From Escherichia coli O127:H6 str. E2348/69 (GTDB taxonomy: Bacteria; Pseudomonadota; Gammaproteobacteria; Enterobacterales; Enterobacteriaceae): DNA of 64,000 nt. Shown piece by piece: positions 12,864 to 13,276 of this stretch. Both the position numbers and the translations under genes were made by a program. Under the pieces are notes generated by a model. That model saw nothing but the letters and a program-made list of their open reading frames with translations. It was not told where the DNA came from and searched no databases. The stretch is from assembly GCF_000026545.1 (NCBI RefSeq), contig NC_011601.1; one strand, written 5' to 3'. Position 1 is the first letter of the stretch. Each line of letters begins with the position of its first letter.

Positions 12864-13276
12864 GAGTTAATTCCACTGTGAAAACGAACATTTATTTTGC
12901 GTTCCCGTTTGTTTTATTTTTGTTAACATTTAATATAATTATTATTAACCTCATGGACGCGTTAATGGCTAACTCATAATGGGTATTCAATAAGCTGCAT
13001 TCTGTGATTGTTATCACATTTTTGTTTCGGGTGAATAGAGGGCATTTTTTCGTTAATTTTGATTATTAATCAGTTTGTTATGTTCTGTTGTGAGTAAAAA
13101 AATAGCATCTGACTTTCAATATTGGTGATCCATAAAACAATATTGAAAATTTCTTTTTTCTACGCCATGTTTTCAATATTGGTGATTAAAGTTTTATTTC
13201 CAAATTAAAGGGCGTGATATCTGTAATTAACACCACCGATATGAACGACGTTTCCTTCATGATTTCTGGAGATGCA
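12864..13276. promoter_or_regulatory. divergent cai/fix control region
   Basis: 413 bp AT-rich intergenic region between divergent caiT and fixA; contains three copies of the palindrome caatattg (13117-13124, 13138-13145, 13174-13181) and a 16 bp direct repeat tttcaatattggtgat (13114-13129 and 13171-13186); individual factor sites not assigned. Confidence 0.6.

Follow-up and report, generated by a model that had tools for sequence, protein, structure and literature searches.

The repeats between caiT and fixA in Escherichia coli E2348/69: a probable CaiF operator carrying one of its two usual modules

The divergent caiTABCDE and fixABCX operons of Escherichia coli are separated by an intergenic region in which short sequences recur, raising the question of what these repeats are and which of them make up a binding unit. 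In the window, by which we mean the whole 64-kb stretch of E. coli E2348/69 DNA analysed here, the octamer CAATATTG occurs at 13117-13124, 13138-13145 and 13174-13181 between caiT and fixA, and the 16-mer TTTCAATATTGGTGAT is found exactly at 13114-13129 and 13171-13186, with 57 bp from start to start. Both repeats had been listed in a preliminary description made from the sequence alone. The three octamers lie where it had placed them and, as set out below, are non-random by shuffling of the intergenic region, and the exact direct repeat was recovered independently by a repeat finder.

The repeats and the CaiF recognition site

Over the window as a whole, CAATATTG is present in 5 copies against 1.43 expected, a count reached in 0 of 100 shuffles. 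For a local test, the 413-bp intergenic region (31% G+C) was subjected to 20,000 dinucleotide-preserving shuffles: none of these contained three or more octamers, 6 contained at least two, and 7 contained any exact 16-mer direct repeat. Similarly, any 8-bp palindrome present three times was obtained in one of 3,000 shuffles of the intergenic region. The remaining copies of the octamer in the window (23095-23102 and 46116-46123) lie within long ORFs, lack the TTT and GTGA flanks, and are chance occurrences. A G+C content of just 31% might be taken to favour the notion that the intergenic repeats, too, are a chance product of AT-rich sequence, or else an artefact of assembly. Against this stand the absence of three octamers from all 20,000 local shuffles, the retention of the motif across three families of Enterobacterales, and the presence of the identical allele in three independent O127:H6 assemblies; we consider the probability of such an origin to be negligible.

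The repeat finder also returned a relation that the preliminary description had missed: a perfect inverted repeat is built around the first two octamers, with the 11-bp arms TTTCAATATTG and CAATATTGAAA set apart by a 13-bp spacer (Table 1). This 35-bp element shows 0 mismatches to TTTCAATATTG-N13-CAATATTGAAA, the sequence of the CaiF sites F1 and F2, which PMC12083890 and PMC3680233 quote from Buchet, Nasser, Eichler and Mandrand-Berthelot (1999, Mol Microbiol 34:562). No second such site was found in the 64-kb window at up to 3 mismatches. The element aligns to positions 547-581 of the K-12 locus (DH5alpha, locus L001), i.e., to the site closer to cai of the pair in K-12 (hereafter site A), which is conserved in the orthologous loci of Escherichia, Salmonella, Citrobacter, Proteus and others. 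According to the same two papers, crotonobetainyl-CoA activates CaiF, which depends on cAMP-CRP as its partner and probably acts as a dimer; the protection and shift results with purified CaiF belong, as far as they are quoted, to the literature on the K-12 / O44K74 sequence. The core finding, that CaiF sites lie between the cai and fix operons, is already known, the sites having been footprinted in 1999 according to these quotations.

The binding unit is the 35-bp inverted repeat; the octamers are not three equivalent sites, nor is the 16-bp direct repeat the unit. The earlier suggestion of two to three sites for a dimeric activator can be retained insofar as the inverted repeat at 13114-13148 is a CaiF site, but not insofar as octamers or 16-mers were treated as equivalent units. 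Its companion proposal, that the carnitine activator works on both operons from candidate paired sites located here, is in agreement with the exact match to the CaiF site as quoted.

The surrounding genes are in keeping with a standard locus: all the cai and fix ORFs of the window are of normal length, as is caiF, the gene for the cognate activator (Table 1). The site shares its exact sequence and its place between caiT and fixA with F1 and F2 of the E. coli cai-fix region, and it likewise has the gene of this activator in its vicinity; the difference is that two sites are found there and one in the window, the fix-proximal unit having been deleted. Taken together, the sequence comparisons make it very probable that the repeats are the known CaiF operator, with one of the two usual modules present in E2348/69.

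An alternative is that the repeats are bound mainly by CRP, FNR, ArcA or H-NS, with CaiF acting elsewhere. All four regulators act in this AT-rich region, and the dyad of the inverted repeat holds GGTGA-N6-AAACA, which agrees with the CRP core TGTGA-N6-TCACA at 7 of 10 positions. However, CAATATTG itself fits neither TGTGA-N6-TCACA nor TTGAT-N4-ATCAA, and the exact sequence is quoted as the CaiF site in two independent papers. Further, the motif travels with cai-fix in the loci examined, and CaiF orthologues were recovered in many of these genera as well (Salmonella, Citrobacter, Trabulsiella, Intestinirhabdus, Atlantibacter, Providencia and others). This alternative is accordingly held to be highly improbable.

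Table 1. Coordinates of the features of the window discussed in the text
Feature	Position	Strand	Remarks
caiF, cognate activator, full length 131 aa	5211-5606	+	NF008549, 213 bits (cut-off 140)
caiT, first gene of caiTABCDE	11349-12863	-	NCBIfam NF002887, 940 bits; RefSeq
CRP/FNR-type site TGTGATTGTTATCACA, perfect	13003-13018		10/10 to CRP core; about -41.5 from predicted cai start
Complete CaiF recognition site TTTCAATATTG-GTGATCCATAAAA-CAATATTGAAA	13114-13148		Exact match to published consensus
Left half-site TTTCAATATTG	13114-13124	+	Holds first octamer (13117-13124)
13-bp spacer GTGATCCATAAAA	13125-13137		First four bases GTGA conserved across genera
Right half-site CAATATTGAAA	13138-13148	+	Holds second octamer (13138-13145)
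fix -35 position, predicted	13164-13169	+	GCCATG, 1/6 to TTGACA; GTGACA, 5/6, in K-12 and other long-form E. coli
Lone left-type half-site TTTCAATATTGGTGA	13171-13185	+	Holds third octamer (13174-13181); predicted 17-bp fix promoter spacer
fix -10 hexamer TAAAGT, predicted	13187-13192	+	Kept in the window
fixA, first gene of fixABCX	13277-14047	+	ATG 13277; NCBIfam NF002888, 533 bits; RefSeq

A 59-bp deletion and its distribution in E. coli

The K-12 locus holds five octamers, distributed over site A, a second full site (site B, L001 603-637) and a lone left-type half-site (L001 662-676). Compared with it, the window is shorter by exactly one 59-bp unit (13149-13186 versus L001 582-677). In alignments with K-12, TO217 and ETEC1720, the spacer following site A is kept in the window, after which the left flank of repeat 2 is joined to the right flank of repeat 3; judging from these alignments, the second copy of the 16-mer is the recombinant junction of the 59-bp deletion. 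The lost unit comprises the fix-proximal CaiF site (site B) together with a GTGACA hexamer resembling the fix -35, leaving the window with one full site against the two (F1 and F2) of the published region. Recombination or slippage between the 16-bp direct repeats removed this unit in E2348/69, and the event shifted the remaining site by 2 bp from the original register.

We surveyed the alleles of this region in 5426 complete E. coli genomes, 5390 of which hold it. The probes were junction-specific 38-39-mers, either side of which is too short to seed a match in the long forms; ranking the genomes by their similarity to a fragment of the window was uninformative, because long forms align to it as two joined pieces at 100% identity. 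The long form with two full sites accounts for 5367 of the 5390 genomes with the region. Site B is deleted, as in the window, in 5 genomes, three of them O127:H6 and two pig ETEC (ETEC1720 and ETEC1722). The reciprocal deletion of site A (56-57 bp) is seen in 11 genomes, including strain 2A (L004 351-424) and an O121:H19 STEC lineage, and two genomes (2014C-3655, locus L088, and C6) have lost both sites and retain no full site. Neither A-A nor B-B duplication junctions were found in the E. coli census. Since the pig ETEC carry the window-type deletion on a K-12-like haplotype, it arose at least twice. Thus, the direct repeats are a recurrent deletion substrate, while the two-site form is strongly predominant, and E. 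coli presents a natural allelic series of 2, 1, 1' and 0 modules.

One further genome has an IS26 beside the region. In E. coli SFE8 (L005 905-1448), an IS26 transposase gene replaces the fix-proximal control region and fixA, and the cai-fix locus is disrupted.

The fix and cai promoters and the placement of CRP

A promoter scan of K-12 returned GTGACA-17-TAAAGT, with the lone half-site filling the 17-bp spacer; the same scan of the window returned no promoter at the equivalent place. There, the -35 position is occupied by GCCATG, a sequence that came in with the left flank of site B through the deletion. The -10 hexamer is retained, and the spacing arithmetic given below puts the predicted fix start at about 13199, 28 nt after the start of the lone half-site and 78 nt before the ATG of fixA; the K-12 scan points independently to this place. 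Two other assignments were tried and rejected. The K-12 sequence TGTGACAT (TGTGA), upstream of the half-site, had been considered as a CRP half-site at -41.5 of fix, and GTGACA as a -35 fits the spacing and the scan better. Likewise, GGTTTTATTT as the E. coli -10 does not fit the reported E. coli start position and is a better candidate in other genera.

On the other side, a CRP-type site is located at -41.5 of the cai promoter (PMC3680233); if this is TGTGATTGTTATCACA, the cai start would therefore be near 12969. In TO217, a B2 strain of the long form, dyads A and B lie 121.0 and 178.0 bp from the perfect CRP site, respectively, and in the window the single dyad lies at 121.0 bp. An abstract by Buchet from 1998 reportedly put the two transcription starts 289 bp apart, and it is said to have placed CRP site 2 at -69.5 and CRP site 3 at -126.5 of fix. 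The values of 121 and 178 bp equal 289-41.5-126.5 and 289-41.5-69.5, and we take them to be the distances to those CRP sites 3 and 2. By this arithmetic, CRP sites 2 and 3 would be centred on the dyads of the two CaiF sites.

The dyad-centred CRP-like motif of the window (GGTGATCCATAAAACA, 13124-13139) has counterparts in K-12 at L001 557-572 and 613-628, of which the one in site B reaches 8 of 10 matches to the CRP core. The presence of CRP sites at the CaiF-site dyads would explain the conserved GTGA that follows the left half-sites, and this GTGA could belong to CRP rather than to CaiF; the exact centring of the CRP-like motifs on these dyads suggests that each module serves CRP and CaiF alike. 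The one CaiF/CRP module of the window would then be centred at about -67.5 from the fix start (formerly -69.5) and about -162 from the cai start. Relative to the two-site E. coli region, the fix -35 hexamer is replaced and the predicted starts would be about 230 bp apart as against about 289 bp.

In the mechanism that we envisage, CaiF, probably as a dimer, would bind 13114-13148 once activated by crotonobetainyl-CoA formed from carnitine, a site about 68 bp from the predicted fix start and about 162 bp from the predicted cai start, upstream of both. Together with cAMP-CRP it would switch on the cai and fix operons under anaerobiosis, as the quoted literature describes for this system. The window allele may well still work, since genera with a single site naturally have a similar flank, as seen in the (T)CCATG of Yokenella. 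The -10 region also differs by genus: Escherichia, Salmonella and Citrobacter have TAA(A/T)GT, and others have only a downstream TATTTT block.

More generally, PMC3105977 groups malI-malXY and rhaBAD-rhaSR with caiTABCDE-fixABCX as divergent regions governed by an activator plus CRP. In each, two divergent promoters are served by one activator specific to the pathway and by several CRP sites; what sets cai-fix apart from the other two is the apparent position of its CRP-like motifs at the dyads of the activator sites, as derived from the spacing arithmetic.

The lone half-site across the Enterobacterales

We then turn to the third octamer, which forms part of the lone half-site. Its 14-mer TTCAATATTGGTGA (13172-13185) is the same 14-mer that makes up the left arm of every full CaiF site. 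A search with CaiT as the probe yielded 80 loci, and the 54 that had fixA in divergent orientation at no more than 800 bp were usable. At least one full site (up to 3 mismatches) is present in 44 of these 54 species loci: 24 loci have two (Escherichia, Salmonella, Citrobacter, Phytobacter and others), 12 have one (Yokenella, Atlantibacter, Pluralibacter, Trabulsiella, Providencia and others) and 8, from Proteus, have three. The 10 loci with zero full sites come from Edwardsiella, Hafnia, Serratia, Budvicia, Leminorella and Limnobaculum. Across the loci, sequence is kept in the half-sites and varies in the middle of the spacer and in the flanks, a classical phylogenetic footprint. Measured back from the fixA ATG, the start of the fix-proximal full site is at about 164 bp in most genera and that of the lone half-site at about 105 bp; the corresponding positions in the window are -162 and -105. 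TTCAATATTGGTGA is exact in 49 of the 54 Enterobacterales species loci, with flanks that are 30-70% conserved, and it is all that remains in the ten species lacking a full site, where it is followed at a fixed distance by GGTATTATTTT and ATGGTATTTCTATTG.

These patterns bear on whether the third octamer is contacted by CaiF at all, as 13171-13185 might instead be promoter or spacer sequence, or a leftover end-repeat of the tandem unit. The published work, as PMC12083890 and PMC3680233 quote it, names two CaiF sites only, both of them full inverted repeats, and the lone half-site is not one of them. Moreover, there is no partner arm 13 bp downstream, where the best match is 4/11 (a 7/11 match occurs at 18-bp spacing, 13200-13210), and placement between a -35 and a -10 is atypical for an activator. 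On the other hand, promoter spacers normally drift in sequence, whereas TTCAATATTGGTGA is exact in nearly all of the loci sampled and the neighbouring promoter bases are 30-70% conserved. Its identity to the left arm of each full CaiF site and its retention by itself in distant genera (Edwardsiella, Hafnia, Serratia and others) also speak against a sequence without a contact function, which we regard as possible though rather doubtful. The lone half-site is most probably also a CaiF contact. By this comparison it is the most deeply conserved element of the region and an overlooked candidate, lying inside the predicted fix promoter.

A lead as to how such a contact might act is provided by GrlA, a homologue of CaiF (PMC9979310) and the activator of LEE1/ler in EPEC and EHEC. 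GrlA is a small CaiF-family protein with an N-terminal helix-turn-helix, and it has been proposed to activate LEE1 P1 via the -35/-10 spacer in a MerR-like manner (Islam 2011, as cited in PMC4730234); the lone CaiF half-site seems to occupy the equivalent place in the fix promoter. The spacer lengths quoted in PMC4730234 are 19 bp for MerR-type promoters and 18 bp for LEE1 P1, the latter reportedly without a dyad, as against the predicted 17 bp at fix. With MerR targets at 19-20 bp and LEE1 P1 at 18 bp, the over-long spacer that defines this mode of activation is absent from fix, and we rejected the filing of the half-site under MerR/GrlA-like spacer activation. The resemblance to GrlA is a lead towards a putative binding of CaiF in the fix spacer. 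CaiF is not mentioned in PMC8085414.

Tentatively, and with less than even confidence, we also consider that TTCAATATTGGTGA might be the ancestral and primary CaiF target, with CaiF acting inside the fix core promoter in the way proposed for its paralogue GrlA at LEE1 P1, and that the upstream repeats might be auxiliary CaiF/CRP modules added later. Under such a history, the number of modules would rise and fall, from 0 to 3, via unequal recombination between the direct repeats. If this were true, E2348/69, the O121:H19 lineage and the double-deletion strains would offer alleles with 1, 1 and 0 modules, respectively, for testing the contributions of the modules.

Several further observations concern the outlying loci and the fixA leader. 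In Proteus (L033-L040 and L051), the intergenic region is about 600 bp long and holds three complete CaiF-type sites with a 59-bp period in addition to the promoter half-site, one module more than E. coli; carnitine regulation is described as markedly different in Proteus (review PMC2131755). The ATGGTATTTCTATTG block lies 28 nt after TTCAATATTGGTGA in loci L052, L054, L055, L056, L058, L059, L028 and L049, which represent Edwardsiella, Hafnia, Serratia, Leminorella and Limnobaculum, and is followed by a fixA leader of about 220-300 nt. It could encode a mini-ORF of 5-8 codons (MVFLL...), and might serve as a leader peptide, an RNA element or a second promoter. At the equivalent position E. 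coli has RTGATATCTGTAATT. An Rfam scan of the K-12, Edwardsiella and Hafnia loci gave no match. In the window, the reading frame of fixA also holds a GTG at 13214, and the 21 codons from there to the annotated ATG at 13277 contain no stop; RefSeq starts fixA at this ATG, and the stretch 13214-13276 overlaps the block equivalent to the conserved ATGGTATTTCTATTG. The consensus scan also picked out, within the fixA leader, a short minus-strand hairpin resembling a terminator (13234-13250) and present in K-12 as well, which is probably not functional.

Present-day carnitine biosensors constructed around the fix promoter make use of the CaiF sites. The lone half-site offers a cheap and testable lead on activators of the CaiF/GrlA family, and it may help in the design of a minimal CaiF-responsive promoter. 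For E2348/69, a standard EPEC laboratory strain, the comparison points to a control region of cai and fix that is rare, having a single CaiF/CRP module and lacking a good fix -35 hexamer; because its control region differs, results on carnitine regulation obtained in K-12 may not transfer to this strain.
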